A stretch of DNA of 53,431 nucleotides, from IMG/VR virus record IMGVR_UViG_3300014152_000002, positions 1 to 53,431 of that record; one strand, written 5' to 3'. Below, in pieces: positions 1 through 53,431 of this stretch (positions are counted from its first letter, which is position 1; every line of letters begins with the position of its first letter). Below the pieces are notes generated by a model. That model was not told the DNA's origin and did no database searches. It saw nothing but the letters and a program-made list of their open reading frames with translations. This DNA is from a virus (Duplodnaviria > Caudoviricetes). The translations under genes and the position numbers were made by a program.

Positions 1-123
1 CCGGCGGCTTCTCGACTGTCGGCGCATACACGATCACGCTCACGGCGACGGGGGCCACGACGCTCACGCTGCCCAACAGCGGCACGCTGGTTACGACGGG
101 GGTGACGTCGCTTAGCAGCCTAG
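1..123. repeat. Terminal overlap, copy 1 (identical to 53309-53431)
   Basis: The first 123 nt (ccggcggcttctcg...agcagcctag) match the last 123 nt. The reading frame continues across the junction. Confidence 0.97.
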
Positions 124-932
124 CGACGATCGGGACGGTCACGACAGGGGTTTGGAATGGCTCGAGCATCCCGCTCGGCTATGGCGGCACCAACGCGGCG
201 CTTACGGCGTCGAATGGCGGCATCGTCTACTCCACGGCGTCGGCCTTCGCTATCCTTTCAGGAACCGTGACGGCAGGCCAATGTCTCTTGAGCGGGTCGA
301 GCGCAGCGCCGACATGGGGTTCGTGCTCTGGCGCCGCCGCGGTCAGTTCAGTTTCAAATTCCGACGGCACGTTGACGATCAGCCCGACGGCAGGGGCCGT
401 TGTCGGGTCATTGGCGCTTGGACACGCGAATACATGGACGGGGGCTCAAACCTTCACCAATGGCGATTTGCTGCTCAAAGGATCAACTTCCGGCTCGATG
501 ACGCTCGAAGCCCCGGCGGCGGCAAGCACTTACGTCATGACATTTCCAGCAGCGACGGATACGGTCGCGGCCCTTGGCGTCGCCAACGCTTTCACAGGCA
601 ACAATTCGCATAGCGGCGTTGAAACCTTCACAGGTTCGCTCAAAGTCGCGACGCGAGTCATCTCGGCCTCGACCGACACGGCCAGCGCGACGACCGACTA
701 TTTCCTGTGTGTCGCCTACACGAGCACAGGCGCCGTCACCGAGACGCTGCCATCCAGTCCGCCAACCGGCCTGACGCTGTTGATTAAGGATTGCGGAGGG
801 GCGGCGGCGACGCACAACATCACGATCACGCCGGCAGCGGGAACAATCGACGGCGCGAGCACCTACGTCATGAGCACGAATTACGGCTCGGTCGCGGTCA
901 CATTCGCGAACAGCCAATGGAGTCTCAATTGA
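1..932 (+). CDS. 3' part of a tail fibre-like protein that starts at 51829 (~803 aa in total across the circular junction)
   Basis: Open frame from position 3 (GGFSTVGAYTITL...) to TGA at 930-932, in frame with ATG 51829 after joining. Gly/Thr/Ser-rich fibre repeats (NTWTGAQTF) and a typical C-terminal fibre domain (TLPSSPPTGLTLLIKD...IDGASTYVMSTNYGSV). Confidence 0.85.
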   Translation, partial: GGFSTVGAYTITLTATGATTLTLPNSGTLVTTGVTSLSSLATIGTVTTGVWNGSSIPLGYGGTNAALTASNGGIVYSTASAFAILSGTVTAGQCLLSGSSAAPTWGSCSGAAAVSSVSNSDGTLTISPTAGAVVGSLALGHANTWTGAQTFTNGDLLLKGSTSGSMTLEAPAAASTYVMTFPAATDTVAALGVANAFTGNNSHSGVETFTGSLKVATRVISASTDTASATTDYFLCVAYTSTGAVTETLPSSPPTGLTLLIKDCGGAAATHNITITPAAGTIDGASTYVMSTNYGSVAVTFANSQWSLN

Positions 933-1804
933 TGCGCGCGCTTCTTGCCATCCTCGCCTTTGCGGTTTATTTCGCAATAGCGCCGGCGTCTGATGCAGGG
1001 TGGCCGAGTTCTGGCCGCGTCTATCCACCATCCGGCGGTGGCGTCGCATGCTCCCAAGCAACAACTTTCCTCGCGCGCACAAGCGGTCTCAGCGGGACGC
1101 AAACGAGCGCATACACTGCGCTCATTTGCGGAATGGTGACGGACGGAACGTGGAGCGTCATGGATGGGCTCTATGTTTTCGCCACAGCCTCGACGGCGAC
1201 AGCCAATCTGAATTTGGTCTCGACAAGCTACGGGCTGACGCAATACGGAACAGTCACGTTCTCGGCCAATGCCGGATATACTGGGGACGGAATAACCGGC
1301 TTTTTCGATACTGGATTCAATCCATCAACCGCCGGCGGACACATGGCCGCGAATAGCGCCTCGCTGGGGGTGTGCGATTTAACTTATAGGGTGCTTGATT
1401 ACTCAAATGAAATTGCGATGGGAGGATATGATGGCTCTGATGATTCATATATCCTTCCGGGGTACACTACCTCTGGCGGGACTTACTTTTTTCTGAACGG
1501 CAGCACAAGCGTTAGCGCATCAACAAACTCGCGAGGTTCATGGGCTATATCGACTACATCGTCATTGACTGGATACGTAGCGCAAAATGGCGTAACATCC
1601 TCATATTCTCCAACTAATTCTAATGTTGTTACACACAACTTATATGTGAGTGCTTTAGATTATGTTGGGTCTGCGGCATATTATTCGGCTGACCAACTCG
1701 CGTATACTTTTTTCGGAGGTGGCCTAACCTCTGTGCAAATGACCGCGATTTACAATCGCCTCCACACGTATCTTGCCACTGTCGGAGCTCCGAGCGGATG
1801 CTAA
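932..1804 (+). CDS. Signal-peptide-bearing tail spike/receptor-binding-like protein
   Basis: ATG overlaps the upstream TGA. N-terminus MRALLAILAFAVYFAIAPASDA. Contains the phage fibre-type segment FLARTSGL...LICGMVTDGTWSVMDGLYVFA. The 3' half is AT-rich. Confidence 0.7.
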   Translation: MRALLAILAFAVYFAIAPASDAGWPSSGRVYPPSGGGVACSQATTFLARTSGLSGTQTSAYTALICGMVTDGTWSVMDGLYVFATASTATANLNLVSTSYGLTQYGTVTFSANAGYTGDGITGFFDTGFNPSTAGGHMAANSASLGVCDLTYRVLDYSNEIAMGGYDGSDDSYILPGYTTSGGTYFFLNGSTSVSASTNSRGSWAISTTSSLTGYVAQNGVTSSYSPTNSNVVTHNLYVSALDYVGSAAYYSADQLAYTFFGGGLTSVQMTAIYNRLHTYLATVGAPSGC

Positions 1805-1815
1805 AGGACACGCGC

Positions 1816-1956
1816 ATGAAAAAGCTACTAGGAATTGTTCTCTCGTTGCTTGCCTTGGCACTGCCGGCGCAAGCGCAAAGCACATGGGAGACGCCCCAAA
1901 CCGCAACAGGCGGCCCCGGTGGCTCCGGTTGCGCGTTCATAGCGTTTCCATCATGA
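1816..1956 (+). pseudogene. Truncated paralog of the N-terminus of the 1970-3709 gene (46 aa)
   Basis: MKKLLGIVLSLLALALPAQAQSTWETPQTATGGP compared with MKRIFGIILALLALAMPAQAQSTWPTPQSPTGGP. Has its own AAGGA RBS and an early stop. Confidence 0.75.
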
Positions 1957-1969: not shown

Positions 1970-3709
1970 ATGAAACGGATATTCGGAATCATCCTCGCGT
2001 TGCTTGCCTTGGCTATGCCGGCGCAAGCGCAAAGCACTTGGCCGACGCCGCAATCTCCTACGGGTGGACCGTCTGTTGGTGGAGGTGTCGGGTTGTGCCT
2101 CAACGGGAGTGGCTATGCGGTTCCTTGCGCCTCGACTGCCGGGTCGGCGACATCTGGAGCGACCGGGGGATTGGCATTTGGAAGCGTCACAACTTCCGCG
2201 CCAACCTACAGCAACGGGACGGTTAATGCACTCTCGCTGGACGCGAGCGGCAATCTTCGCGTCGCAGCTACTGTCAACGCATCCGTTTCCGGCTTCGCGC
2301 CTGGAGGGGCTTATGCAACCGCGACGGCGCCAAGCGGATCGTCTTCGGCTGCGACACTCCTTCCTGCCGGAACGACGGTTGTCTTCTTTAACACCGGCTC
2401 CAACCCGATTTCGGTCAATCTAGGCGGGTCTGGCGTGGCTGCGGTTGCGACAGACAATATCGTCGCGGCAGGCGGCGCGCTCCCGTTGACGGTCGGATCG
2501 AACACCTATTTCGCGGTTTGGGGCGTCGGCGGCGCTTCGACGGTTGTTGCTTCCGGCGGCGCCGGCCTTGCGACAGGTTGGGGCGGTGGCTCTGGAGGCT
2601 CTGGCGGGACGGTCAACCAAGGCACTGCGGCCTCATCCGGTCCGTGGATTGAAACACCGTGGATCGGCGGAGCGGTCAATTCCGCGACGAACGGATTGTA
2701 TTTCAACAATCTGCAAGGAAATGCCGTCCTCTCCGCCACCAACGGTTTGTTCTCGAACATTCTGCAAGGTAACGCAGCTCTAACAGGGGCAAACCCGATC
2801 TTCGCCGCGCTTTCGATTGGCGGCGCCGTGGATTCCGCGACCAACGGAATTTACGCCAATCTTCTCCAAGGCAACGCGGTTCTCACCGGCGCGAACGGAA
2901 TTTTCACCGATCCGGACATTTCCGCTGTCGGCACGACGATCAATTCCGCGACAGCCAACGCCGCTGTCACGATCAATCTCAGCGCAGGAAAAGGGACTGC
3001 CGCCTTCGTGGTTTCGGGGCTCACTGCTTCCGGCGCTACGCTCACCATCGAAGGAACTGACGATGGCTCGACGTGGGCCGCTGTCAACGGCGTGGCGCCA
3101 CTTACTGGTGCTTTATTTTCAACTTTAGCGACCGATCAGCAGTTCCGCGTCAATGTCGCCGGTCGCGTCGGCGTTCGCGTGCGCGTATCCGCCACAGGCA
3201 CAGGCACGATCACGGTTTCGACCAACGCCGGTAACGGCTCTGGCGTGACATCGCTCGGAACGCCTCTTCCGACAGGGGCGAATGTTCTTGGCAAAACAGG
3301 CATCGATCAGACGACGCCAGGAACTACGAATGCCGTGCAGCATATTGCGGGGACTACTGGCGGCGCGACGCCGGCTCATTACCTATCCGCCGCTTCGAAC
3401 AATGCAACGAACGTCAAAGCGACGGCGGGGACGATCTACGGGCTCTCGCTCATAAACACCACGGCGACTCTCTATTATCTCCGTCTCTATGATGTGGCCA
3501 CGTCCGCCCCAACATGTTCATCCGCCACCGGCGTCGTCCAAAACATTCCCATCCCAGCCAACACAGCCGGCGCTGGCGTGGTTTTGAATTTCGACGGCGT
3601 CGGCATGCTGTTCGCCAATGGCATAGGGTTCTGCCTAACGGGGGCATTTGCCGACAACGACAACACCAACGCCGCTACCGGCGTGGCTGTGAACCTGATT
3701 TACAAGTGA
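1970..3709 (+). CDS. Signal-peptide-bearing fibre/structural protein, 579 aa
   Basis: MKRIFGIILALLALAMPAQA|Q. Gly/Ala/Thr-rich beta-type domains with internal ~17-aa repeats (SATNGLxxNxLQGNAVL) at about 2665-2905. Confidence 0.75.
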   Translation: MKRIFGIILALLALAMPAQAQSTWPTPQSPTGGPSVGGGVGLCLNGSGYAVPCASTAGSATSGATGGLAFGSVTTSAPTYSNGTVNALSLDASGNLRVAATVNASVSGFAPGGAYATATAPSGSSSAATLLPAGTTVVFFNTGSNPISVNLGGSGVAAVATDNIVAAGGALPLTVGSNTYFAVWGVGGASTVVASGGAGLATGWGGGSGGSGGTVNQGTAASSGPWIETPWIGGAVNSATNGLYFNNLQGNAVLSATNGLFSNILQGNAALTGANPIFAALSIGGAVDSATNGIYANLLQGNAVLTGANGIFTDPDISAVGTTINSATANAAVTINLSAGKGTAAFVVSGLTASGATLTIEGTDDGSTWAAVNGVAPLTGALFSTLATDQQFRVNVAGRVGVRVRVSATGTGTITVSTNAGNGSGVTSLGTPLPTGANVLGKTGIDQTTPGTTNAVQHIAGTTGGATPAHYLSAASNNATNVKATAGTIYGLSLINTTATLYYLRLYDVATSAPTCSSATGVVQNIPIPANTAGAGVVLNFDGVGMLFANGIGFCLTGAFADNDNTNAATGVAVNLIYK

Positions 3710-3719
3710 GGTGCGCGCC

Positions 3720-4790
3720 ATGCTGAAAAGACTTCTCATCGCGGCACTCGCTGGAGCGCTGATCGGCGCTCCCGTCCGCGCGCAATTGCTGATGACAGGC
3801 GCGGGACAACCGACAAACGGTTCATCGCAACTTATCGCCCAAACCAATTACGCCCTCGGCTCTCTTGGGAGCGGCGACACGCTTACTAGAAGCACCAGTG
3901 CAAACTATATTGACTCATCCGGTGGGATAAGCACCGCAGCTATTAATGTTCCGCGTTTCGATTATACTTTTTCATCGACTCCGGGACTGCTTGTGGAGGG
4001 AAGCCGGACTAATATTGCTCTATATAACCAAGATTTTACACAAAGCGCAATATGGGTTCCAGGTGCAAGCTATACGTCAACTACGACTTCAACTATTACA
4101 GATACAAGCGCGTCTGGTTATGGGGCTACTACGCAGACGTTTATCACATTAGCGGATACATATGAAAGATATTTTTCGGTTTATATACTAAAGGACACGA
4201 ATCAAACAAGATTTCCAGAATTTCAAACAAACATAAATGGTGGTTCCGCAACCAATATTACCGATGTAAATACACAAACTGGCGCTTATGTCATAAGAAC
4301 ATCGGCGGGCACTAATTCTGTCGCTGTGTCTAGTGTCGGAAATTATTGGAAGATAACGCAAACAATTGTAAATACTAGCCAATTGGGATTTACTTATGCC
4401 CTGTTACCGGCCGCCGGAACAACTATCGGAGTGATTAGTATAGCAGCTACTGGAACCGCGACATTTGCATGTCCACAGATTGAGGTTAATGTCAGCTTCG
4501 CATCGAGTTGCGTGTTTACAACCTCAACATCGGCTATCCGCGCCGCAGATACATTTTCAAACTCAAATTGGTATAATGGCTCGACTGGAAATTATCTTAT
4601 GGTTGAAAGTATCAGTGAAGCGACTGGAACAATGAGCCGCGCGAGCTACTGCGCCAGCGGATGCACGGGAACTAGCTTCTCCCCGAGTTTCATCACCATT
4701 ACCCGCATTTGCCAATTCAACGCCACTCCTGCGGGCGCTACAGCGGCGCAAACGGCGGCTGGACAAGCAAACGGAACGGTGTGCTCATGA
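3720..4790 (+). CDS. Signal-peptide-bearing head/tail spike-fibre-like protein
   Basis: MLKRLLIAALAGALIGAPVRA|Q. Motifs TRSTSANYIDSSG...PRFDY...GLLVEGSRTN and QIE...FASS..TT....RAAD are typical of phage spike/fibre carbohydrate-binding modules. Confidence 0.75.
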   Translation: MLKRLLIAALAGALIGAPVRAQLLMTGAGQPTNGSSQLIAQTNYALGSLGSGDTLTRSTSANYIDSSGGISTAAINVPRFDYTFSSTPGLLVEGSRTNIALYNQDFTQSAIWVPGASYTSTTTSTITDTSASGYGATTQTFITLADTYERYFSVYILKDTNQTRFPEFQTNINGGSATNITDVNTQTGAYVIRTSAGTNSVAVSSVGNYWKITQTIVNTSQLGFTYALLPAAGTTIGVISIAATGTATFACPQIEVNVSFASSCVFTTSTSAIRAADTFSNSNWYNGSTGNYLMVESISEATGTMSRASYCASGCTGTSFSPSFITITRICQFNATPAGATAAQTAAGQANGTVCS

Positions 4791-5263: not shown

Positions 5264-5809
5264 ATGACACGCATGATTATTCTCGTCTCGCTGTTGCTGA
5301 CCTCGGCGCCGGCGCGGGCGGACTTTCTTCAAGATTTGTTCGGCGCTCCAACTATCCGGCAATCCCGGATGGCTCGATTGCACCCTCCAGGGCGCTTCAT
5401 TCATGGGCGCGTCGCCTCAGAGAGGGGCGCACGTTCGTTTCTCGGAACATGGCGCGGGGATAGTAGCGTCTCGCAACTTATTGCGTCCAGCGTCTCCGCT
5501 CGCATCGGGGCGCAGTGGGTTCCCGTGGCGCTCAAAATCGCCAAGATCGAAAGCGGCGGCCGATGCAATGCGGCCAACCGTTCCGGCGCCGTGGGCGTGT
5601 TTCAGGTGATGCATCCAGCCCAATTTGGGATTTCGCGCGCGGCGGCCCTGACATGTTCGGGCGGCGTGGCGGCGGGCGTCGCGCACATGGCGCGCTGTGT
5701 CGCGCATGGGGCGCGGACGGCTGGACAGATGATGGCTTGCCACAATGGCGGCAGTCCGTTTGCCCGCCGTCTTGAGCCGGCCTATCGCCGGGCGCTCGCC
5801 GGCCTATGA
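5264..5809 (+). CDS. Exported lytic transglycosylase (SLT domain)
   Basis: AAGGA RBS. Signal peptide MTRMIILVSLLLTSAPARA|D. SLT motifs IAKIESGG, GAVGVFQV and CHNGG. Confidence 0.8.
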   Translation: MTRMIILVSLLLTSAPARADFLQDLFGAPTIRQSRMARLHPPGRFIHGRVASERGARSFLGTWRGDSSVSQLIASSVSARIGAQWVPVALKIAKIESGGRCNAANRSGAVGVFQVMHPAQFGISRAAALTCSGGVAAGVAHMARCVAHGARTAGQMMACHNGGSPFARRLEPAYRRALAGL

Positions 5810-10032: not shown

Positions 10033-10053
10033 CCCTAAAGGCGGAGCGAGAAA

Positions 10054-10302: not shown

Positions 10303-10312
10303 CCCCGACGAT

Positions 10313-14697: not shown

Positions 14698-14699
14698 GT

Positions 14700-14790: not shown

Positions 14791-14793
14791 GGA

Positions 14794-29414: not shown

Positions 29415-29938
29415 TCCATGCGCGGGGCGTCATCCTTCGGCTCCCGACGCTTGGCGACTATCCGGCATGGCGGGCGCTGCGAGAGGCGTCCGCCGACTAT
29501 CTCGCCCGAGTGGAACCGGACTGGCAGCCGCCCGTGGACGAAGAGAGTTTCGCGCGTCAGGTCGCCGAGGCCGAAGCCGTCGCGCGGGAAAGCCGGGGCT
29601 ATTCGTTCCTGATATGCCGGCCGAACGGCGATCTTGTCGGCGGCGTTACGCTCGGACCGTTCGTCGATAGAGTCGGGTTGCTCGGAACATGGATCGGGAC
29701 TCCGTTCGTTGGGCGAGGTTACGCGGTGCGCGCGGTCGGCGTGGTTCTCGACATTGCGTTCGAAACGCTTGGGCTCAACAGCGTCGCGGCTTCTGTCCTT
29801 CCCGACAATGACCATTCGATAAGGGTGCTTGAGAACTTCGGATTCGAGCATGACCCGGATCGCAATATCGTGCTTCGCGTCGCGGACGCGCCGAAATTGC
29901 ATTGTGTCTACGTCCTGAAAAAGGAAGATCGACGATGA
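29411..29938 (+). CDS. GNAT N-acetyltransferase, RimJ-like
   Basis: LRLPTLGDYPAWRALREASADYLARVEPDW, LVGGVTL, GTWIG...GRGY and PDNDHSIRVLENFGF. Confidence 0.88.
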   Translation: MIHARGVILRLPTLGDYPAWRALREASADYLARVEPDWQPPVDEESFARQVAEAEAVARESRGYSFLICRPNGDLVGGVTLGPFVDRVGLLGTWIGTPFVGRGYAVRAVGVVLDIAFETLGLNSVAASVLPDNDHSIRVLENFGFEHDPDRNIVLRVADAPKLHCVYVLKKEDRR

Positions 29939-41985: not shown

Positions 41986-42203
41986 CGGCAAATCGCAAAG
42001 CCAATCTCCCGCCTGTCTCAGCCCCGTGGGCTGACGGGCGCGGCGTGCCGAGCATCCCATTTGGACAGTGGGCGTCAGCTATCGCAGCGAACATCATCGG
42101 GCCTCTCCCGGCGGCGGCGAACGATGCGGCAGCGGCCAAGGCCGGCGTGCCGATAAATGCTCTCTATCAGGCTTCCGGCGTCGTCAGAATAAGGATCGTC
42201 TAG
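41982..42203 (+). CDS. Small tail-module protein
   Basis: AANDAAAAKAGVPINALY.....VRIR motif. Confidence 0.7.
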   Translation: MTANRKANLPPVSAPWADGRGVPSIPFGQWASAIAANIIGPLPAAANDAAAAKAGVPINALYQASGVVRIRIV

Positions 42204-42205
42204 CC

Positions 42206-43153
42206 ATGAGTTTCCTCAGCAATCTCTTCGGCGGCGCGAATACAGCCGCGGCGGACCAAACCCAAGCGATGCTCGCGGCGATTGGCGCTGGCCAGCAGGG
42301 CGCGCAAACGGCTGACCAACAATTAGCAGCCGCCACGCAGCAGGGCGTCGCCCCTCTTCAGCAGAATTTGACGACCGCAAACCAAGGCGTCACGGGGCTC
42401 GGGAACGCGCTCGGGCTCAACGGCCCGGCTGGCAATCAATCCGCGCTTGCTCAATTGGAGACCACGCCCGGCTATCAGTTCTCGCTTGGACAGGGCAACA
42501 ACCAGATAAACGCGGCGGGCGCGGCGAACGGGACGCTTAATTCCGGCAACCAGCTCACGGCACTGGCGAATTACGGCTCCGGCCTAGCGCAGCAAAACTA
42601 TGGGAACTATGTCAGCCAGCTTCAGCCCTATCTGGGAGCGTCCAACCAAGCGGCGCAAGGCATAGCCGGGATGTATCAAAACCTCGGCAACCAACAGGCC
42701 GGCGTGCAGAACAATCTCACCAATACCGAGATTTCCGCACTCACTGGCGCGGGCAATGCGAACGCAAACGCGGCTCTCGCCAACCAGAACCAAGCGCAGA
42801 GTTTGCTTGGCGGCGCTGGGAAGGCGATAGGTGGGCTATTAGGAACGCCTACAAGTTCGGCGCTTAACCCAACTTATGGGACGAGCCTCCTGACCGGCCT
42901 CGGTTCACTCTTCACTGGAAGCGACGAGCGCATAAAGGACGACATCGAACCCGTCGGAGAGCTTTACGACGGGCAGCAGATTTACCGCTACCGCTACAAG
43001 GGAGAAGATCGGACCAACATCGGGCTTATGGCTCAAGATGTTGAAAACTTATTCCCCGATGCGGTGAGGGAGTTCTCCGGCTATAAGGCCGTGAACTATA
43101 AGGACGCGACTGACTTCGCGGCTCAGCTCGGCGGCCTATTGGAGGCTGCTTGA
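42206..43153 (+). CDS. DNA ejection protein (gp7-like) with C-terminal intramolecular chaperone (peptidase S74-like) domain
   Basis: TPGYQF...QG, SGN.L.AL..YG.GLA.Q; SDERIKDDIEPVG...IYRYRY...GLMAQDVE...PDAV. Confidence 0.75.
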   Translation: MSFLSNLFGGANTAAADQTQAMLAAIGAGQQGAQTADQQLAAATQQGVAPLQQNLTTANQGVTGLGNALGLNGPAGNQSALAQLETTPGYQFSLGQGNNQINAAGAANGTLNSGNQLTALANYGSGLAQQNYGNYVSQLQPYLGASNQAAQGIAGMYQNLGNQQAGVQNNLTNTEISALTGAGNANANAALANQNQAQSLLGGAGKAIGGLLGTPTSSALNPTYGTSLLTGLGSLFTGSDERIKDDIEPVGELYDGQQIYRYRYKGEDRTNIGLMAQDVENLFPDAVREFSGYKAVNYKDATDFAAQLGGLLEAA

Positions 43154-45318
43154 TGGTTGCGCCTTTCGTCGCCGGTCCATCCTACCCGACGCTGGACAAC
43201 ACGCAGCTCGGGACGGCGCTCGGGAACTTGCCGGGAGACTATCGAAAGGCGCAATCCGACCAACTCACGCTGCAACAGCAACAGCAGGAAATCGAGCGAC
43301 AGAGGATTCTTGCCGAGCAGCAAAAGGCGCAACAAACCGCCTTCGCTGGCGGCCTTCCGATGGCCAATGGCCAATTGGATACGGCCAGTTATATGCAGAC
43401 GCTCGCTCAGAAGGGCTTGCTCCCCCCGGACCAAGCGGCGAAGCTGGCGGGCCTTCAGCTAGAGCAGCAGCAATACCAGCCGGCGCCCGCCGATCAATTC
43501 CTTGGCGGCGGCGGTGGCGCTCCACAGGCAGGCGCTCCGCCATCGGCCGGTGGCGACGCTCTTGGGCGCATTGAGGCCGGAATCGCGCGCGTCGAAAGTG
43601 GCGGCGAAAAAGACCCATATCGCGCCATTGGACGGGAGACCGGAAGCGGCGACCGCGCCTATGGCAAATATCAGGTCATGGGCGCCAACATCCCAAAATG
43701 GACCGAGGAGGTTCTTGGCCGCAAGATGACGCGGCAGGAATTTCTCAACGATCCACAGGCTCAGGAAGCTGTCGCTAAGGCAAAACTCGGACAATATCTC
43801 GAAAAATACGGCGACGCCCCGGACGCGGCTTCAATGTGGTTTACCGGCAAGCCCTTAGCGCAAGGAGCGAACCGCAAAGACGTGAACGGTATGACTGGCT
43901 CCCGCTACGCCGAATTGGCGACGGGAACCCAGAATGATGCATCTCCGTCCATCCCCGCCGTCGCGCTGACTGCCGGAAGTTCAATCCCGCGCTCGAATGG
44001 TGGCGCGCAGCCGGCGGGCGATACCGGCGGCATCGGTCTTGGCGCGCGCGCGGCAGGCCTGGGACAAGTTGGTGGCGGTCCGCAACCAACGCTCGGCGCG
44101 GGTCAGACCGTGGCGAGTCTTGCCCAAGGACTATCTCCGAACCAAGCATCGAACCTTGCGAAGGCCATCGGCGCTCCAAACGTCAACGCGCCTCTAAATC
44201 CAGATCAAACCCAAAAGTTGCAGCGCATCATCGCGGGGAACTATGGCGGCGGTCAGGGCCAACAGCCGGCTCAGGGCGGCGCTCAACCGGCCCAATCGCC
44301 ACAGCAAGGCGGGCAGCCCCTCGTCTATCAGCCGCCGCTTGATCGAGGGTTCAAGACGCAGCAGGAAGAAATTGCGGCGGAAACGAAGAGAATTTCCGAG
44401 CTTCGGCAAACGATGAGCAAGCCGGCGCAACAGCGCGCCGACGAGCTTGAAAAGGATCGCGACGCGAGGATCAAGGCAATCTCGCCGCAAACGGTCCATC
44501 CCGGCACACAATTCGTTTCGCCAACGGGAGAAACGCTTTTCGAGGCTCCGACGGCCGGCGAACGCACCTTGGCGGAAAGAAAGGACGAAGCGCACGAAAT
44601 AGCGCAAGGAATTAAAAACGGGACAATTCCGCCAACAGCGGCGACGGGCTACGGAGTTGGGCCGCTAGTTCGGGCTGAACTTGCCAAAGGCGGCGATTAC
44701 AATCTCACCAAAGCCAACCTCGAATATGAGGCGGCGAAAAAGCAAGTAATGTCGCTTAATGGTCCTCAGATGGTCCGATTTAACGCGCTGGCGGAAAGCG
44801 TCGTCAACACGATCGATAGGACGGTTGAGACCTCGAAGGAATTGAGACTTTCTGGCATTCCTCTCGCGAACAAGGTTGAACTTGGCGCGTGGATGCAAGC
44901 GAATGGAAATAGCCCGAAAGGCCAACTTGTCGCAAAATATATGACTGATATCAATACATTGAAGGAAGAATACGCAAACTTGGCGAATGGCGGTTATGCA
45001 CCAACGGAATCGGCGTGGAAGCTGTCGAACATGGTTGTCAACGGCGACTATGGCTCGAAGCAACTTGAGGCGAGCTTAGAAGAAGCGCAGCGCCTTATCA
45101 ATTTCCGACGCGCCGCATTTTCCGATCTTTCCACGATGGGTCCGGGGGCTCCAAACCCATATATGCCGGGACGTGGGGCGGGTGGCGCTGTGCAGCCATC
45201 AACGGAAGGCGGCGCGAGAGGACAAGGCGGCGTTCCCCAACCAGGCCATATCGAGCAAGGCTATCGCTTCAAGGGCGGCGATCCATCTAAGCCTGGAAGC
45301 TGGGAAAAGGCTCAATAA
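43153..45318 (+). CDS. DNA ejection protein with an internal muralytic (lysozyme/SLT-like) domain
   Basis: Gln/Gly-rich. IARVESGG...AYGKYQVM...W...FL.DP.AQ...AAS.WF.G; C-terminal GYRFKGGDP....WEK. Confidence 0.75.
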   Translation: MVAPFVAGPSYPTLDNTQLGTALGNLPGDYRKAQSDQLTLQQQQQEIERQRILAEQQKAQQTAFAGGLPMANGQLDTASYMQTLAQKGLLPPDQAAKLAGLQLEQQQYQPAPADQFLGGGGGAPQAGAPPSAGGDALGRIEAGIARVESGGEKDPYRAIGRETGSGDRAYGKYQVMGANIPKWTEEVLGRKMTRQEFLNDPQAQEAVAKAKLGQYLEKYGDAPDAASMWFTGKPLAQGANRKDVNGMTGSRYAELATGTQNDASPSIPAVALTAGSSIPRSNGGAQPAGDTGGIGLGARAAGLGQVGGGPQPTLGAGQTVASLAQGLSPNQASNLAKAIGAPNVNAPLNPDQTQKLQRIIAGNYGGGQGQQPAQGGAQPAQSPQQGGQPLVYQPPLDRGFKTQQEEIAAETKRISELRQTMSKPAQQRADELEKDRDARIKAISPQTVHPGTQFVSPTGETLFEAPTAGERTLAERKDEAHEIAQGIKNGTIPPTAATGYGVGPLVRAELAKGGDYNLTKANLEYEAAKKQVMSLNGPQMVRFNALAESVVNTIDRTVETSKELRLSGIPLANKVELGAWMQANGNSPKGQLVAKYMTDINTLKEEYANLANGGYAPTESAWKLSNMVVNGDYGSKQLEASLEEAQRLINFRRAAFSDLSTMGPGAPNPYMPGRGAGGAVQPSTEGGARGQGGVPQPGHIEQGYRFKGGDPSKPGSWEKAQ

Positions 45319-47003
45319 TGCCGGGACCGTGGGAAAACTACACCCCTCAGCCTTCGGGCGCGCAGCCGGCGGAAGATGGACCATGGACCAAATATCAGCC
45401 AGCGGCGCATCAAGGCGGCGCACAGGCTCCAAGCATGTCGTGGGGAGAAGTAGGGTCACAAGCGCTCCATAACGCCCCGGAAAGCGCCGGACGATTTATC
45501 GAAGGCATTGCCCAGCCATTCATGCACCCCATCGATACCGCAACGGCGCTTTCTAATGTCGGAACTGGCGCGATTGCAATGGGGGGCTCGGCGCTCGCGG
45601 CGGCTGTTCCGAGCGAGGCCCTGCCCGAGAAAACCTTCGGCGAGCGCTATCAGCACGGGCTTAATGTCGTAAAGGAAAAATCCGGCGCGTCCGAGGCTTA
45701 TCCCGAGGCTGTGGGTAAATACTTCACTGATCGCTACGGAAGCATCGAGGGCTTCAAAAAGGCGGTCGCGACTGATCCAGTTGGCGTGATCGGTGATCTT
45801 AGCGCGGGGCTAACTGCCGGCGGCGCAGCGGTCGCCCGCGCTCCCGGCGTCATCGGTAAGGTTGGCGAGACGGCACGCGCGGCGGGGGATATTCTCAACC
45901 CCGCAATGAGACCGGCGAAGGCTGCTGGCGCGGCGGGAGAGGAAGCGGCGAGGCTCCGGCGCCCTATCGAGGCTCCAACGAGCGATGAGCTTTACGAGGC
46001 TGCGAGCGCCGCATACGAGCACCCGTCCATAAAAGAGATTGTCGTCAAGCCTAGCGCCTTCAAAACGTGGAAGGACGAGCTTCTCGCCACGAACGATATC
46101 GTGGATGAGGATTTGTCGCCAAAAACATTCAAGATACTAAATCGTCTTGATGAACCGCCAGAAGGATCATTCCTTGACGGGCGGAGCATCCAGTCTCTTC
46201 GGCGCAAGCTCGGGCAAGCGGCGGGTTCCGTCGATCCTACCGAAAGGAAGGCAGCGCGGGACGCCATCTCGTCCCTGGACGACTTTCTCGCGGACATTCC
46301 TAAAAAGGCGGTCTTGAAAGGCGACCCCAAGGCGGTTTCCGCCGCTCTTGAGGAGGCGAGAGGGAACTACGCGGCGGCAAAACGTAGCGACGTAATCGAG
46401 GGAAAACTTGAGGCGGCGGAACTTCAAGCTGGGAGCGCCAACAGTGGGATGAATCTCGATAACGCGACGCGCCAGCGCCTTAAAGACGTTCTCAAGAGCG
46501 ATAAGTTGCGCCGTGGATTTTCCCAAGAAGAACTTACGCAGATGCGGAAGATCGTCACGGGAACCCCCGTTGAAAACATCACGCGTCGCGTCGCGAATAT
46601 GCTTGGCGGCGGGGGAGGGATGGGTGCCACCGTCACCGGCGCTCTTGGCGGGGCCGCTGGCGCCGCCGTGGGGCATGTCCCCGGCGCGATGATCGGGGCG
46701 GCGATCCCCGCCGCCGCTGGGTATGCGCTCAAGAAACTGAGCGCGGCCATGTCGCAGGCAGATGTCCGTAGGTTGCAAGAGATGGTTCGGTCTAGATCCC
46801 CGCTTGGCCGTCAAATGCAGTCCTCCTTGGGTAAGTTCGGGAAGGCGAGCACAGCGGCCAAAGGGTCACCAACGTCCAAGAATATAGCCCGCTTCATGCT
46901 GGCGGCGAGAAATCTATCCACGAACCTTGCCGATGCCGGGATGAACGTCCCTCCCGAGGATATTGCCGGTGGCTTTGCGTCGGCGGACGGAAACGAGAAA
47001 TAG
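45318..47003 (+). CDS. DNA ejection protein
   Basis: N-terminal GPW..Y repeats, Ala/Gly-rich hydrophobic segments, third gene in the ejection cluster. Confidence 0.68.
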   Translation: MPGPWENYTPQPSGAQPAEDGPWTKYQPAAHQGGAQAPSMSWGEVGSQALHNAPESAGRFIEGIAQPFMHPIDTATALSNVGTGAIAMGGSALAAAVPSEALPEKTFGERYQHGLNVVKEKSGASEAYPEAVGKYFTDRYGSIEGFKKAVATDPVGVIGDLSAGLTAGGAAVARAPGVIGKVGETARAAGDILNPAMRPAKAAGAAGEEAARLRRPIEAPTSDELYEAASAAYEHPSIKEIVVKPSAFKTWKDELLATNDIVDEDLSPKTFKILNRLDEPPEGSFLDGRSIQSLRRKLGQAAGSVDPTERKAARDAISSLDDFLADIPKKAVLKGDPKAVSAALEEARGNYAAAKRSDVIEGKLEAAELQAGSANSGMNLDNATRQRLKDVLKSDKLRRGFSQEELTQMRKIVTGTPVENITRRVANMLGGGGGMGATVTGALGGAAGAAVGHVPGAMIGAAIPAAAGYALKKLSAAMSQADVRRLQEMVRSRSPLGRQMQSSLGKFGKASTAAKGSPTSKNIARFMLAARNLSTNLADAGMNVPPEDIAGGFASADGNEK

Positions 47004-47006: not shown

Positions 47007-47960
47007 ATGGCTGGCACTCTGAATCTCGCGCTCGCGCAACAACTCAACATCAACGGCCAGCCGCTCGCCGGGGCCTTGCTGTATTTTTTCCAGGTCGGAA
47101 CCGTCGCGACGCTTCAAAACTCCTATCAGGATTTTGGTCTCACGATCCCGAACGCGAATCCTCTTGTGGCCGATCAATACGGCCGTATCCCGATGTTTTA
47201 TCTCGCGGACGGCCAGGTTCATGTGCGCCTGACCGATGCGAACGGAACGGTGATTTTCGATTATCCTTCGATGCAGGTCGTGGGGCCTTCTTTCGGCGGC
47301 GGTGGCGGCGGGGGGGCTGTCGATCCTTCGACGGTCGCGGCGACGGGCGACGTCAAATACAGGCTTACGACTGAAATCCTAACGGGGTGGGTGAAGCTCA
47401 ACGCCCAAACGATAGGGGCTCCGTCTTCCGGCGCCACGCAACGCGCGAACGCCGACACGCAAAACCTCTTCGTCTATCTGTGGAACAACTTCTCCAACGC
47501 GCACGCGCCGGTCTCTGGAGGGCGCGGGGCGTCCGCCCTAGCCGACTACAGCGCCAACAAGACAATCAGCCTCCCTGACCTCCGTGGGCGCGTTATGGCC
47601 GGCCTCGATGACATGGGCAGCACGGCTGCGGGGATCATCCTCCCGGCGAATGTGACCTCGGGCGGCGGCGACGGGCCGACGACGCCAGCGGCGCGCGGCG
47701 GCGAAGCAAACCACATCCTAACGCTTGCCGAGGCCCCGGCGGGACAATTCACGATCAACGATCCGAGCCATTCTCACAACACCGCATTTGGCGGCAATTC
47801 TGGCGGCGGGCCGTATCTCGGCGGAACCCTTGCAGGATCGAGCAACCCTGCCGCAACCCAAGCGGCATCGACCGGAATTACGCTGACGGATAATGCTGGC
47901 GGCGGAAGTCATAACAATATGATGCCGTTTGTTTTGGGCACTTGGCTGATGCATCTATAG
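47007..47960 (+). CDS. Tail fibre with N-terminal virion-binding domain and tail-collar domain
   Basis: NGQPLAGALLYFF..GT...NPL.AD..GR; TGDVK...GW..LN..TIG; LPDLRGR..AG.D.MG; GGE..H.LT..E; HNNM.P. Confidence 0.85.
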   Translation: MAGTLNLALAQQLNINGQPLAGALLYFFQVGTVATLQNSYQDFGLTIPNANPLVADQYGRIPMFYLADGQVHVRLTDANGTVIFDYPSMQVVGPSFGGGGGGGAVDPSTVAATGDVKYRLTTEILTGWVKLNAQTIGAPSSGATQRANADTQNLFVYLWNNFSNAHAPVSGGRGASALADYSANKTISLPDLRGRVMAGLDDMGSTAAGIILPANVTSGGGDGPTTPAARGGEANHILTLAEAPAGQFTINDPSHSHNTAFGGNSGGGPYLGGTLAGSSNPAATQAASTGITLTDNAGGGSHNNMMPFVLGTWLMHL

Positions 47961-47969: not shown

Positions 47970-48479
47970 ATTTACGATTATCCAGTCCTGTTCCCGGCGA
48001 CGAGCAATCGCGCGAATTGGGCACAAATCATCCAGATCGCCGACGACGACACCGGTGATTTGGTTGCTTTGACGGACTCCAACGGCGTCCCTCTATGCCA
48101 GATATATCTTGAGATTTCGCCGCCTCGCCATCATGGAGGCGGCCACGGCTATGGGCCTTATTCTTCGCCTTACTATGGCAACGAAGGCGAACCTTTGATA
48201 TTCGGGTCTCTCGCGGATTATATTTCAATAATAGATGTCGGAACAATTCAAATAAATATACCTTATACGGTGATGCAGAAAATGCGCGGCAGCATGACTT
48301 ACGACGTTTATTTGCGGCTTGAATCACTGCAAAGCGGAATAGACGTAAACGGCGACTTTAGCAGCGATTTCAGCGGCGACTTCAACGTAGTCCAAAGCAG
48401 CGTCTCAAGCAACCAACCCGACGCGCGTCAGCTTCTAATCGGTAAACTTCCAATCGCCTTTGGAGGACGTGGCGTATGA
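47970..48479 (+). CDS. Fibre adaptor-like protein, probable ATT start
   Basis: AGGAGG RBS followed by an in-frame ATT at 47970, giving (M)YDYPVLFPATSNRANW... Confidence 0.65.
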   Translation: MYDYPVLFPATSNRANWAQIIQIADDDTGDLVALTDSNGVPLCQIYLEISPPRHHGGGHGYGPYSSPYYGNEGEPLIFGSLADYISIIDVGTIQINIPYTVMQKMRGSMTYDVYLRLESLQSGIDVNGDFSSDFSGDFNVVQSSVSSNQPDARQLLIGKLPIAFGGRGV

Positions 48480-48952
48480 ACCTGCGAGAGATTGTTAAAT
48501 ATGACCCAGAAACCGGCTGCTTCTCATGGCTGATCTCAGGGAAGGGAATCCGCCAAGGATACCCGTGCGGGGCCATCACTACTCAAGGTTATCATCGCAT
48601 CAAGATACAACAACGTGAATATCTAGCACACCGGTTGGCGTGGTTTTTTATGACAGGTTCATGGCCAGATGGAGAAATAGACCACATAAACATGGATAAA
48701 GCGGATAATAGATGGATAAATTTGAGAGATGCGACAACTAAGCAAAATCAATATAATAGGACTGCTCCATCAAATAATACATCTGGATTTAAGGGCGTCA
48801 CGTGGAATAAGAAATGCAAAAAATGGCAATCATCTATAGGTTATGAAGGAAGATATGTTTATCTAGGTCTGTTCGACTGCCCCGCAGCGGCCCATTTCGC
48901 TTATGTGATAGGCGCTGACAAACACCACGGAATGTTTGCGAGGTCGTCATGA
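48476..48952 (+). CDS. HNH-AP2 homing endonuclease
   Basis: YDPETG.F.W, YLAHRLAW...G.WP...IDHIN....DNR..NLR, NTSGFKGV.W and YLGLF. Confidence 0.92.
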   Translation: MNLREIVKYDPETGCFSWLISGKGIRQGYPCGAITTQGYHRIKIQQREYLAHRLAWFFMTGSWPDGEIDHINMDKADNRWINLRDATTKQNQYNRTAPSNNTSGFKGVTWNKKCKKWQSSIGYEGRYVYLGLFDCPAAAHFAYVIGADKHHGMFARSS

Positions 48953-49416
48953 GCCTTCCCGCAAATATCAGGATCAACGTCCGCGTTCCGTTCCCCACGT
49001 ATGTTCAAGGCGTCGCGTTCATTGGAGTGAACAAAGCCAACGGAATCTGGTCGATTGTCCCGGACTATCGCCGCCTCGCGCCGAGCATCGGAATCGCGCC
49101 GACGCAAATGGTGGCTCTGCAAGACTCGATAACCGGAGTTTGGTCATATATCCCCGCAAGCAGCCTTTCGTCTGGATCAGCCTCCGGGTCGGTAACGAAG
49201 CGGCAATGGTTCGAGGCGGTTGCATCGCTTTACAACATGAACACGCTACTATCCGCCGTCACCGCGAATGCAAACAACGCGGCTTGGATACAGTTCAACG
49301 CTGGCGCAATCGTTATTTCAGGCGACCCTCTCTCGACATTGACGCAATCCGTTTTTGCTTTGAGCGGCGCGCAATTGGCCGCGTTGTTCACGCTCGCCGC
49401 AACTCTCTCGCCATAA
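48949..49416 (+). CDS. Tail fibre-associated protein
   Basis: LPANIRINV..PFP..V.G; VTKRQ...LF..AATL C-terminal motif. Confidence 0.65.
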   Translation: MSLPANIRINVRVPFPTYVQGVAFIGVNKANGIWSIVPDYRRLAPSIGIAPTQMVALQDSITGVWSYIPASSLSSGSASGSVTKRQWFEAVASLYNMNTLLSAVTANANNAAWIQFNAGAIVISGDPLSTLTQSVFALSGAQLAALFTLAATLSP

Positions 49417-49435: not shown

Positions 49436-51829
49436 ATGAAGAGACTTGTCCTAGCGCTGTCGCTGGCGCTCACTTTCGTGCGCCCGGCGCCCGCCGATAC
49501 GTTCACGCAATTGCTTCTCGGCGTCGATACCACGCCGACGCCTTCGCCGGTTTGCATCATGTCGCCAACGGGGATTTGCGCGGCGCAGTTGGGGACGTGG
49601 AACATCGGTACGAGCACATGGACGCCAGCGGGTGGGGGTGGCGGCGGTGCGATCTCTTTCCCGCAAACCGTCGCTGGCACGACGACGAGCGGCGGCGTCC
49701 CCTATTTTTCGTCCGCGACTCAGCTTTCTTCCAGTGGGTTGCTCGCCGCTAATGCTTTGATGGTCGGCGGCGGCGCTGGAGCTGCTCCGGCAACCGTCAC
49801 CACGGGGATGGGAGTTGTCACGGCGCTCGGTATCGCGGTCAATAATGCCAGCGGCTTCCCGCTTCTCAACGCGACGCTTCCCACGGTCGGACATTGCATC
49901 CAGTGGGGATCGTCTGGACTGACGGACGCGGGCGGGGCCTGCACCACGGGCGGAGGCGGCGGCACGGTATCATCCGGCAACGCGGGCCAGCTTACCTATT
50001 ACGCTTCGACGGGAACGGTCGTGTCCGGCGCGACCACGGGAACAGGCGTTCTCACGGCGCTAGGACTCGCTACCAACGCGCTCGGCGGGGTTCTGACGAC
50101 GCCGAGCGGGGCCTGCACGTCCGGGCAATTCTTGACGTTTCAGACAGCCGGCTCGGTCCCGACATGCGCGACACCAGCCGTTTCCGGGCTGACGGTTGGC
50201 TCCACGACCATCTCCGGCGGCACGAATGGATATGTGCAATACAACAACGGTGGCCTTCTTGGCGAGAAGGCCACCACGGGAACCGGCAATGTCGTCCTAA
50301 GCGCTTCGCCGACGTTTAGCGGCACGATTGGCGGAACTCAGGTTGTCCCATATTCGGCGCTCGTGAACATTGGCGCCAACACCGTTCTTGGACAAGTCCT
50401 AGCAGGAACTCCGACGCAGCTCTCTGTGCCATCATGTTCGGGAACCGGGCAAGCATTGAACTTTACGAGCGGCGGCGGCTTTGGATGCGCGACAACAAGT
50501 GCTGGTGGAACCAGCGCGCCGGCGGTCAATGCCGTGGCGACATGCGGCGTTTTGATCGGGGGGTCGGTCGACCAATCTACGAAGATCAACTCATGCCTCG
50601 CGACCTACAGCGCTGTGTCGTTCCCTTGCGGAACTTACTACACGACAAATTCGATAGTCGTCGCGTCTAGCCAGTCGATATTTGGAGGCGGGCCTTATTG
50701 CACCATCTTCAACATCAATTCGACGACCGCCCCTGCGATCCATGTGACGCCGACGCCGTTTAACGTGACGCTTCGAGATTTTGCGGTCCTTCGAACAGGG
50801 ACTCCAACATCGGGAGCCACGGGGATACTAATTGAAGACTGCAACGCTGATGTGCAGATAGATCATATTTGGATAACGGGGCAGTGGGATGGAATAAGTT
50901 TAGGGTCAACCGCAGGTGGAAATGCTCAATTCATCGTAGCTACTGAGAATTACGGCAACGGCTTTATTTTGACGACATCTGCTTCATGCGGCCAGCCGAT
51001 GCAGTGGAACCTATTGACTACGGCTTCGACGTATAACGATGGGTGGGGATATTACACAAACCCAGCTCTGACTGGTGGAGATGTCGCAATTCTCCTCCCT
51101 TGGCTTAATGCTAACTCGTTCGCCAACACAGCGGGAGGCTTCGGCTTCCTTGGCACGGCGGCGCATCCGATCCACGGCGTCTCGCTCTATAACTGCGTGT
51201 CGTCGACTGACGGCGGTGTGAACGGCGGCCAGATCGTCATTAACAGCGGCAGTGGACACACAATTAAGGGGTGCTATATCGAGCTTCCCGGAGCAGGGAC
51301 AACTGGTCACACGACGACGACCCCGGCGTCAAATTCAGGCTACGGCATATCGCTTGAAGGAAGCAACGGCATTGGGTGGATCTCCATTCAAAATAATAAC
51401 ATAGCAAATACGGCTTACAGTGGCATAAGCATCGCGGCAAACACCGTATATTCATTGAATGTGACGGGAAATATGATCCACGATCCAGGTTGGGCCGCGA
51501 ATAACACGTATGACGGCATAGTCACTACTAGCGCGATAACAAACGGCATCATATCGGGAAACACGGTTGACCACAATGCGTCGGGTGCGTCAAATGCAAA
51601 CCTGTTTAGAAACGGCATAAACATTTTCGGGACTCAGACGGCGCTCAGTATGGTTGGTAACGTCGTGCAGGAATCGGGTTCTTACGGACTGTTTTATAAT
51701 TCAGCGCCTAGCTCTTACGGAATGACAACAGGCAATATTTTCAGCGGCGCAGCAGGCGGCTGCACGGGGACCGGCTATGTGGCTGCTTCAAACTATCATG
51801 TCGGAAATGTCGGGGGCGCGGGATGCTAA
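49436..51829 (+). CDS. Signal-peptide-bearing tailspike with right-handed beta-helix (depolymerase-like), 797 aa
   Basis: MKRLVLALSLALTFVRPAPA|D; DQSTKINSCL.....FPCGTY; repeated GI.I/NN.I beta-helix rungs. Confidence 0.8.
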   Translation: MKRLVLALSLALTFVRPAPADTFTQLLLGVDTTPTPSPVCIMSPTGICAAQLGTWNIGTSTWTPAGGGGGGAISFPQTVAGTTTSGGVPYFSSATQLSSSGLLAANALMVGGGAGAAPATVTTGMGVVTALGIAVNNASGFPLLNATLPTVGHCIQWGSSGLTDAGGACTTGGGGGTVSSGNAGQLTYYASTGTVVSGATTGTGVLTALGLATNALGGVLTTPSGACTSGQFLTFQTAGSVPTCATPAVSGLTVGSTTISGGTNGYVQYNNGGLLGEKATTGTGNVVLSASPTFSGTIGGTQVVPYSALVNIGANTVLGQVLAGTPTQLSVPSCSGTGQALNFTSGGGFGCATTSAGGTSAPAVNAVATCGVLIGGSVDQSTKINSCLATYSAVSFPCGTYYTTNSIVVASSQSIFGGGPYCTIFNINSTTAPAIHVTPTPFNVTLRDFAVLRTGTPTSGATGILIEDCNADVQIDHIWITGQWDGISLGSTAGGNAQFIVATENYGNGFILTTSASCGQPMQWNLLTTASTYNDGWGYYTNPALTGGDVAILLPWLNANSFANTAGGFGFLGTAAHPIHGVSLYNCVSSTDGGVNGGQIVINSGSGHTIKGCYIELPGAGTTGHTTTTPASNSGYGISLEGSNGIGWISIQNNNIANTAYSGISIAANTVYSLNVTGNMIHDPGWAANNTYDGIVTTSAITNGIISGNTVDHNASGASNANLFRNGINIFGTQTALSMVGNVVQESGSYGLFYNSAPSSYGMTTGNIFSGAAGGCTGTGYVAASNYHVGNVGGAGC

Positions 51830-53431
51830 TGAAAATGAGAAACGCTCTCGCGGCGCTTTTCCTCGCGCTATCTCTGCTCATCGGTGTCGGCTCGGCGCGC
51901 GCGCAAACTCCGACGTGCTCGGATAACTTCCTCGCGATTCAAAATCTCATCAACCAAGACATCATTTCTGGCGTCGGGGGCGGGATCAAAGCTACGACCG
52001 TCAATTCGCTGATGACGATCCAAAATAATTGCTACCTTAATGTCGAAAACTATAATTCGTCGGCGTTGGCGGGGCTCGCTATCGCGCCAAATACGTCAGG
52101 CGGATTCGCGACGTGGCCGGTTGCCGGTGGCGGCGCTCCGGGCGGCGGAAGTGGTCAACTGCAATACAACAACGCCGGGGTGTTTGGAGGATTCACGCCG
52201 ACCGGCGATTTGACGTTTTCGGTTCCGAATTTCACACTCAACACCGTCAACTCAAGTCCAGGGTCTTTCGGATCGTCAACCCAATGCCCGACGATCACGG
52301 TTAACGGGAAGGGGCTCGTAACGGCGGCTTCGCAAACCGCGTGCGCCGGCGGCGGAACATTGTTTTTCCCTCTCACGGTCTCCGGCACGACGACCAGCGG
52401 CGGCATTCCATATTTCGCGAGCACAACCTCTCTAGCGTCAAGCGGACTATTGACGGCGAACGCTCTCATGATTGGCGGCGGTGCTGGTGCGGCGCCGTCC
52501 ACAACAACGACAGGCGCTGGGGTGCTGACCGCGCTAGGGGTCGCGGTAAACGCAGCGACTGGCCTCCCGCTGATCAACGCGACGCTCCCCACGGTCGGCC
52601 ACTGCCTGCAATGGGGCTCGTCCGGCATCACCGACGCGGGCGGGTCTTGCACCACGGGAGGCGGCGGTGGAACCGTGTCAAGCGGCAACTCTGGGGCTCT
52701 CACCTATTACGCATCCACGGGCACGACTGTTTCGGGCACGGCCACCACAAACGCGAGCATATCTGGCGCTGCCCTGTCTCTCGGTTCGTCCGGCGTAAAC
52801 GGATCAATCATATTCGGCGGATATACGTCGGGGACCGTCACATTAGAGCCCGTGACCGCCGCGCTTGGCTCCGCTATAGCATTTTTGCCCGCGAATACAG
52901 GCGAGATCGCCGAGCTTAACTTTGCTCAGACGTGGAGTGCCGCGCAGACGTTTGGCGCCAGCGACATCGTGCTCACCGGAGCTTCTGGTTGCGCGACATT
53001 TTCCGCCGGGGTTTTGTCAGGCACTGGTTTGGCGTGTAGTGGTGGCGGCGCGGTTTCCTCGGTCGCAAACAGCGACGGCACATTGACGATTAGCCCGACC
53101 ACTGGCGCCGTTGTGGCGTCCTTGGCGCTCGGCCATGCGAATACATGGACCGGAAATCAAACATTCCCTTCTTCGTCAATTGCGACGACGACGCTCACGG
53201 GGGCGCTACAAGCTGGCCAATTCCCCGCCATGACCGGAGATGTGACGAATACCGCCGGGTCGCTGTCGACGACCGTGGGGAAGATCGGTGGCCAATCGGT
53301 CTCGCTTGCCGGCGGCTTCTCGACTGTCGGCGCATACACGATCACGCTCACGGCGACGGGGGCCACGACGCTCACGCTGCCCAACAGCGGCACGCTGGTT
53401 ACGACGGGGGTGACGTCGCTTAGCAGCCTAG
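51829..53431 (+). CDS. 5' part of a signal-peptide-bearing tail fibre-like protein (continues at 1-932)
   Basis: TAATG overlap; MKMRNALAALFLALSLLIGVGSARA|Q; open to the window end; GQLQYNNAG.FGG and ITVNGKGLVTAAS fibre motifs. Confidence 0.85.
   Translation, partial: MKMRNALAALFLALSLLIGVGSARAQTPTCSDNFLAIQNLINQDIISGVGGGIKATTVNSLMTIQNNCYLNVENYNSSALAGLAIAPNTSGGFATWPVAGGGAPGGGSGQLQYNNAGVFGGFTPTGDLTFSVPNFTLNTVNSSPGSFGSSTQCPTITVNGKGLVTAASQTACAGGGTLFFPLTVSGTTTSGGIPYFASTTSLASSGLLTANALMIGGGAGAAPSTTTTGAGVLTALGVAVNAATGLPLINATLPTVGHCLQWGSSGITDAGGSCTTGGGGGTVSSGNSGALTYYASTGTTVSGTATTNASISGAALSLGSSGVNGSIIFGGYTSGTVTLEPVTAALGSAIAFLPANTGEIAELNFAQTWSAAQTFGASDIVLTGASGCATFSAGVLSGTGLACSGGGAVSSVANSDGTLTISPTTGAVVASLALGHANTWTGNQTFPSSSIATTTLTGALQAGQFPAMTGDVTNTAGSLSTTVGKIGGQSVSLAGGFSTVGAYTITLTATGATTLTLPNSGTLVTTGVTSLSSL
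53309..53431. repeat. Terminal overlap, copy 2 (identical to 1-123)
   Basis: Direct sequence identity. Confidence 0.97.

Follow-up and report, generated by a model that had tools for sequence, protein, structure and literature searches.

The DNA examined here is the IMG/VR virus record IMGVR_UViG_3300014152_000002 (Caudoviricetes), analysed over its whole length of 53,431 bases and called the window below. It carries five consecutive genes, g49436, g51823, g932, g1970 and g3720, whose products, judging by their sequences, are very probably exported by Sec, cleaved and disulfide-bonded, these three traits being taken together. Export and oxidative folding of outer virion proteins had been put forward in the original prediction made from this DNA, and both gain comparative support, since the signal peptides are kept in divergent relatives and the cysteines (Cys) are paired. 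The further proposal that the five proteins dock onto virions at lysis falls just short of an even chance as a whole and stands evenly balanced once export is granted. Docking gains indirect support because other phages have a signal peptide directly before a tailspike head-binding domain, and because the only head-binding spike of a complete genome has a signal peptide.

The first gene, g49436 (49436..51829, + strand), encodes 797 amino acids (aa). Its signal peptide at aa 1-20, MKRLVLALSLALTFVRPAPA/D (the slash marks the putative cleavage site), is followed by a Gly/Thr-rich fibre part with Cys-stapled motifs and a C-terminal right-handed beta-helix at aa ~360-715, and the mature chain has 18 Cys. 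The second, g51823 (start 51823 or 51829), leaves the end of the window and continues at 1-932 because the record has a 123-base terminal repeat. Its 5' part (51823..53431, +) contains a signal peptide ending in GVGSARA/Q and 12 mature Cys in six local pairs, and its 3' part (1..932, +), in which bases 1-123 are the same as the last 123 of the window, encodes a C-terminal tip that matches tail-fibre PHROG 972. On the circular map g51823 amounts to 805 aa and has fibre modules in common with g49436. It is followed by g932 (917..1804, +; start 917 or 932; ~290 aa), with a signal peptide ending in FAIAPASDA/G and 4 mature Cys; by g1970 (1970..3709, +; 579 aa), with the signal peptide MKRIFGIILALLALAMPAQA/Q (ending in LAMPAQA/Q) and 4 mature Cys; and by g3720 (3711..4790, +; start 3711 or 3720; 356 aa), with a signal peptide ending in GAPVRA/Q and 6 mature Cys. 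The g1970 protein is a mosaic of four modules, and its C-terminal module D (aa ~456-579) is a jelly-roll-like knob with a conserved Cys pair. The g3720 protein consists of a lectin-like domain and a Cys-rich C-terminal tail.

It had been claimed that five consecutive genes start with signal peptides, and all the open reading frames (ORFs) and N-termini lie where they had been placed. The Cys motifs quoted in support are all present, with the Cys mostly in local pairs, and the tail proteins g47007, g48949, g43150 and g45318 are without signal peptides, as was said of the cytoplasmic proteins. These four neighbours have no Cys, and g48060 has one. The numbers of mature Cys in the five proteins are all even, and the residues mostly lie 8-40 apart. 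All five starts are at or overlap the preceding stop, with a Shine-Dalgarno (SD)-like motif upstream of most. The five N-termini, like that of the endolysin gene g5264, fit a basic n-region, an uncharged h-region of 8-16 residues and small residues at -3/-1, the fit of g932 being by eye only. None of the five has a lipobox Cys at +1, a position taken by D, Q, G, Q and Q in turn. The window phage also appears to export its lysin by Sec: g5264 (5264..5809, +) encodes an SLT lytic transglycosylase with a signal peptide ending in APARA/D and 4 mature Cys, and, since an endolysin must reach the periplasm, it illustrates within the genome itself what a functional export signal looks like. No phage thioredoxin/DsbA-type CxxC motif is found in the ORFs of at least 70 aa in the window; the host Dsb system would be needed.

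Every signal-peptide count in this work comes from a custom, crude rule and not from SignalP, with visible false negatives and a few false positives. Applied genome-wide to greedy length-based gene calls, the rule flagged 9 of 84 ORFs, compared with 9 of 348 internal-methionine control fragments. The nine are four of the five fibre genes, g5264, g26342, g28962 and two minus-strand ORFs that are probably spurious; g932 was missed because its start lies >40 codons inside the longest ORF. The fibre genes have a high GC content at second codon positions (GC2).

The signal peptides are retained among relatives. In a close relative with 95% identity (L003), both the gene order and the signal peptides are kept, with drifted signal-peptide sequences: g1970 and its orthologue differ at 6 of 20 signal-peptide positions. 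A signal peptide is present in 84 of 119 g1970 homologues among the matches listed, and in 71 of the best 149 representatives of the 1089 g49436 homologues. The A-x-A/Q sites are conserved across families. Module D occurs in 326 viral contigs, of which 80 were surveyed with frames set by tblastn, giving 77 with untruncated genes; 39 of these genes have a signal peptide, 8 a 'MADN..PGSGG' start and 30 another start (some of these being missed signal peptides). Signal-peptide genes are also gathered around module D, since among genes of at least 150 aa they make up 68 of 271 neighbours within three genes and 43 of 445 farther off, and runs of three to seven of them occur at many of these loci. 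The module-D phages are otherwise unrelated to the window phage, with the exception of one fetched phage (L062) that has a related portal (57%) and capsid (73%).

Some variants of these N-termini may be added. Between g932 and g1970, a 41-aa ORF (1816..1941, +) repeats the signal peptide of g1970 together with the start of its mature chain, and its sequence equals the N-terminus found in the L003 orthologue; it is probably a recombination remnant, the scar of a cassette exchange at the 5' end. In P0127, a signal peptide of the g932 type with the N-terminus 'AGWPSSGR' is joined to a domain of the g3720 type. Two g1970 relatives, P0078 and P0089, have lipobox-like ends (..LAAC and ..FAAC) and may, on this motif, be lipoproteins rather than substrates of signal peptidase I.

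Signal peptides and paired Cys occur together in relatives, as the original prediction would have it, in three sets of homologues. Even counts of mature Cys are found in 121 of 123 members of the g1970 family with a signal peptide and in 43 of 66 without (16 of the 66 have none). In the g49436 family the corresponding figures are 62 of 71 and 46 of 78, and among head-binding spikes 11 of 13 and 16 of 52. Consecutive Cys are no more than 40 residues apart in 323 of 356 pairs from signal-peptide proteins, compared with 109 of 166 from the others. The two Cys columns of module D read C/C in 70 of 74 signal-peptide proteins and lack Cys (mostly V/A) in 36 of 44 others; of seven exceptions, at least three (P0010, L016 and L019) come from signal peptides that were overlooked or cut short. 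In the g3720 family, which is small, members with a signal peptide have a four-Cys C-terminal tail, and LamG-type relatives are without both. The parity result is less exposed to kinship among the sequences, as its Cys are spread over a variety of shuffled modules. In four g49436 relatives (P0143, P0156, P0161 and P0229), two Cys stand inside a fibre-repeat-like motif, 'CPTRP.GD.SN.CASTA[FW]V', the counterpart of 'P..P.GD.S..IATT.FV', which we take to be a common tail-fibre repeat.

Fold, sequence and trimer results make all five proteins of the fibre/spike type. The AlphaFold2 (AF2) model of g49436 is a right-handed beta-helix with a predicted local distance difference test (pLDDT) score >90 over aa 360-710. 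Foldseek gives it 64 PDB matches at E<=0.001, of which the best are the secreted alginate epimerases AlgE4/6 (AlgE4, E=7e-9) and the next are the tailspikes CBA120 TSP2/3, the Pam1 receptor-binding domain (E=7e-6), HK620, Dettilon and phi29 gp12. By sequence g49436 has no match in PDB, and a tailspike head-binding domain was not found in it. The g3720 protein matches, at aa 52-280, aa 42-276 of Rcc01080, the head-spike fibre of the Rhodobacter capsulatus gene transfer agent (RcGTA; PDB 6TB9), with E=6.2e-5 over ~230 residues, and it also matches tail-protein PHROGs. The domain of g932 has a relative in GP20, a tail spike of 1220 aa from Klebsiella phage KPP5665-2, where it spans aa ~88-340. 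The g1970 model is confident for two beta-sandwich modules only, and its PDB fold search returned nothing at E<=0.001, the matches being weak and of the jelly-roll or PRD1 P5-knob kind. Module D, which forms the knob at the C-terminus of g1970, is predicted to trimerise: three copies score 0.64 as a homotrimer, compared with 0.00 for the best of 3 controls, at least 81% of contacts agree between runs, and the partner pLDDT is at least 82. In calibration the mark of 0.64 was attained by 20 of 30 proteins solved as one-chain pairs and by 1 of 23 single chains, the module D runs differing in set-up from that calibration by the use of their own alignment and three copies. Pfam returned nothing for the five proteins, and PHROGs returned partial tail-protein matches only.

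The search with g49436 also revealed proteins in which a signal peptide stands directly before a tailspike head-binding domain. In one of them, P0153, aa 31-102 match PDB entries 9vyg (1.2e-5) and 7eeq (6.7e-4). A scan with the head-binding domain matched 200 viral contigs, and the best 80 of these gave a set of 67 unique spike genes. In 14 of the 67, the signal peptide ends 0-8 residues before the motif 'LLPNGxQQF', and the other 53 have a methionine start just ahead of the domain, bar two cut by the contig end. P0153 belongs to G001, a complete 61-kb genome with direct terminal repeats (DTR). This genome and a second complete one (G002) each have a single head-binding match, and in each it carries a signal peptide. 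The late strand of G001 has 10 signal-peptide ORFs with 12, 6, 4, 16, 4, 10, 2, 14, 2 and 6 Cys, all even, and its other large fibre-like proteins also all have a signal peptide. Among its late-strand proteins without a signal peptide that were sent to PHROGs, four were named: an Hc3 hub, a DNA-ejection protein, a 234-aa lysozyme/endopeptidase-like protein and a 208-aa needle-like tail protein. G001 would have no spike unless its exported proteins join the particle.

Textbooks describe tailed-phage assembly as cytoplasmic throughout. In the assembly route proposed for the window phage, the late fibre/spike proteins would cross the inner membrane via host Sec and be cleaved by signal peptidase I, after which folding, trimerisation and the formation of intrachain disulfides would take place in the periplasm with host Dsb help. 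The head, tail hub, needle (g42068) and fibre g47007 would be built in the cytoplasm, and the two pools would meet only once holin or lysis breaches the inner membrane. At that point the exported proteins would be added to the particle, supplying it with further parts for receptor binding or for cutting polysaccharide. Such docking would be compatible with P22-like assembly because spike addition is there the last step, which, according to Israel, Anderson and Levine in 1967, is reportedly possible in vitro. Extended beyond the window, the scheme would mean that widespread uncultured tailed phages build their receptor-binding apparatus in two compartments, through a periplasmic branch of Caudoviricetes morphogenesis, and that in some genomes the periplasm-made set includes the primary head-binding tailspike. 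This extension is tentative and is held with somewhat less than even confidence. Full-text literature searches, which covered main articles, gave no report of Sec-exported or signal-peptide tail fibres or spikes of tailed phages. If the scheme is true, exported and disulfide-bonded spikes would constitute a new assembly route in which completion of the particle is tied to lysis, and host Sec and Dsb would be phage dependency factors. Annotation pipelines and predictors of structural proteins usually class signal-peptide proteins as non-virion, so that host-range determinants would be missed. Moreover, expression in the periplasm or under oxidising conditions would be required to produce receptor-binding proteins or depolymerases of this type. 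Should the proteins not be part of the virion, there would still be a large and common class of secreted, fibre-derived phage proteins to explain.

Several points weigh against the proposed assembly route, beginning with the crude rule behind the signal-peptide counts. The window virion already has a fibre, g47007, and searches of PDB, Pfam and PHROG found no recognisable virion-docking or anchor domain in the five proteins. The cluster in L062 has a position odd for fibres: its four signal-peptide genes, which include a g932-like one, are found between portal and capsid (9764-15693) and not after the tail genes. The tree of the short head-binding domain is poorly resolved, and in it the signal-peptide label changes 7 times, of which the well-supported branches force 1. 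In the module-D tree the C/C state changes 4 times and a test on independent pairs is not significant (median p 1), and Fisher p-values for module D are overstated because the sequences are related and the independent events few. No cultured phage with such an arrangement was found, the best 2 of 34 cultured records with a head-binding domain (P4282 and PAE2) being without a signal peptide. The search of cultured phages gave g49436 one 53-residue match, to a fibre of Bradyrhizobium phage ppBjS10J-1 with 6 Cys and without a signal peptide; it gave none for g1970 and marginal matches for g3720 and g932. A scan of genome contigs returned only 9 loci, all in metagenome-assembled genomes or uncultured bins (a beta-proteobacterium, Phenylobacterium, Acidobacteriaceae, Magnetococcales, Gallionella and Saccharibacteria), and thus gave no host.

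Part of this evidence would equally suit five proteins that are exported and disulfide-bonded and never enter the virion, the main rival reading, though less probable than not. The original prediction had named a similar alternative, in free adhesins or receptor-masking proteins. As soluble or envelope-bound accessory proteins, set free at lysis or active in the periplasm, they could be polysaccharide depolymerases or lectins. Removing or covering receptors on dying cells and cell debris would be one role for them; others would be to prevent superinfection or to help progeny escape by loosening capsule or biofilm. The absence of a known anchor domain, together with the presence of the non-exported receptor-binding fibre g47007 in the particle, favours such a free secreted role, and the varying position of the cluster, as in L062, points the same way. 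The beta-helix of g49436 is closest to secreted alginate epimerases and lyases. In addition, module-D proteins without a signal peptide (P0018, P0064, P0091, L049, L057, L070 and L074) have in common a ~40-aa N-terminus, 'MADNxT..PGSGG..DD..GV.Y.R.K', which may from its sequence be a virion-docking peptide; in the signal-peptide forms it is replaced by a signal peptide and a small Cys loop. On the other hand, the signal-peptide spikes of other phages retain the head-binding domain of virion proteins, and a purely free role would leave G001 without a spike. The five genes take up ~8.5 kb, or 16% of the genome, which is costly for accessory proteins. Furthermore, receptors on the outer surface would be out of reach of periplasmic proteins before lysis, barring a further secretion step.

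It is very unlikely that the hydrophobic N-termini are not used for export at all, the proteins being either started downstream or left uncleaved in cytoplasmic assembly, with the Cys oxidised only after release. A downstream start would agree with the public gene call for g1970, P0001, which begins at residue 68, and with the methionine inside the head-binding motif (NGMQQF) of several signal-peptide spikes, a potential internal start. The Bradyrhizobium phage fibre has a module in common with g49436, and its 6 Cys occur without a signal peptide. However, the five starts abut the preceding stops and mostly have SD-like motifs, the features of a signal peptide are retained despite divergence (as between g1970 and L003), A-x-A/Q sites are conserved across families, and an internal methionine is lacking in at least 6 of the 14 head-binding spikes that carry a signal peptide. 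Were both kinds of protein folded in the cytoplasm, there would also be little reason for relatives that have no signal peptide to lack the Cys pair. Other phages make depolymerases in two forms, one soluble and one virion-bound, from alternative starts. A pair of products of this kind in the window phage, one exported and one cytoplasmic for the virion (through an internal start or late Sec saturation), is least probable of all: an internal methionine lies near the cleavage site of g3720 (QLLM/TGAG) and of about half of the signal-peptide head-binding spikes, but no internal start is suitably located in g49436, g932 or g1970, and a reducing cytoplasm would be a poor place to fold proteins so rich in paired Cys.

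Export followed by docking may also be set beside known systems. P22-type tailspikes have a beta-helix as g49436 does, and the window phage has a P22-like portal, an Hc3/gp10-like hub and ejection proteins. They differ from g49436, which combines a signal peptide with 18 paired Cys and lacks the head-binding domain. To our knowledge, the tailspikes described so far fold in the cytoplasm and are made without a signal peptide. Rcc01080 of RcGTA is anchored to the capsid by the base protein Rcc01079. For the P22 tailspike, a preprint legend (10.64898/2026.09.13.751334) gives as the usual expectation that no signal peptide is needed. Rcc01080 itself is described as a proven particle-bound adsorption protein of RcGTA (PMC5026251), and the passages on it in that article mention no signal peptide. 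It is like g3720 over the globular domain, to which g3720 adds a signal peptide and a Cys-rich C-terminal tail. Sec-exported and signal-anchor-release (SAR) endolysins and spanins are likewise late phage proteins that use host Sec, and the window has g5264 and the Rz-like g26342; unlike fibres and spikes, they are lysis proteins acting on the envelope. The receptor-masking lipoproteins Llp of T5 and Cor of T1/phi80 are exported and encoded beside receptor-binding genes. They are small, lipidated and unrelated to fibres, whereas the five proteins have 290-805 aa, no lipobox and homology to virion fibre/spike domains. AlgE epimerases are Sec-dependent, extracytoplasmic beta-helix proteins, among which AlgE4 is the best fold match of g49436, and they come from cellular genes. 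The fibre adhesins of Bdellovibrio are also Sec-dependent, extracytoplasmic, phage-fibre-like cellular proteins. In contrast to the AlgE and Bdellovibrio genes, the signal-peptide fibre genes stand in rows within late operons, in phage genomes that are complete.

As regards the wider setting, the window is the whole IMG/VR record, its 123-base direct repeat is common to both ends, and its completeness is rated at 100%. By its sequence features, it is a complete ~53.3-kb DTR podovirus of soil type with a P22-like head and tail hub. PHROG matches place the large terminase at 27268, the P22-like portal at 33036, the major head protein at 36230, the Hc3/gp10-like hub at 39892 and ejection-type proteins at 42068-47003, and they include Erf and exonuclease recombination genes. 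These matches, together with the head-binding domain of g47007, indicate a P22-like podovirus in which a single fibre is of the conventional, cytoplasmic sort. The g42068 protein, called the needle in the proposed assembly, ends at its C-terminus in a Peptidase_S74 intramolecular-chaperone domain. The N-terminus of g47007 (47007..47960, +; 317 aa; no signal peptide) matches the tailspike head-binding domain in PDB entries 7eeq (E=7.8e-7) and 9vyg (E=2.5e-6), and on this match g47007 is the canonical virion-anchored fibre of the window phage. Between it and the signal-peptide set lies g48060 (48060..48479, +; 139 aa; no signal peptide), the correct ORF for an adaptor that the original prediction had put at 47970. 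It is followed by g48949 (48949..49416, +; 155 aa), for which the atlas search gave weak leads (<0.9) to tail-fibre assembly proteins.

Between the terminase and the gene at 31353, positions 29935-30681 encode a protein of 248 aa whose N-terminus, MRKFALAVAAAMFATGSLA/Q, resembles a signal peptide and which has no match in Pfam or PHROG. A weak Rz-like spanin, g26342 (26342-26644), lies far from the endolysin gene g5264. Three HNH homing-endonuclease genes are present in the window, at 39069-39890, at 6834-7514 on the minus strand and at 48476-48952, the last of which separates g48060 from g48949 in the window and is not present in the close relative L003.

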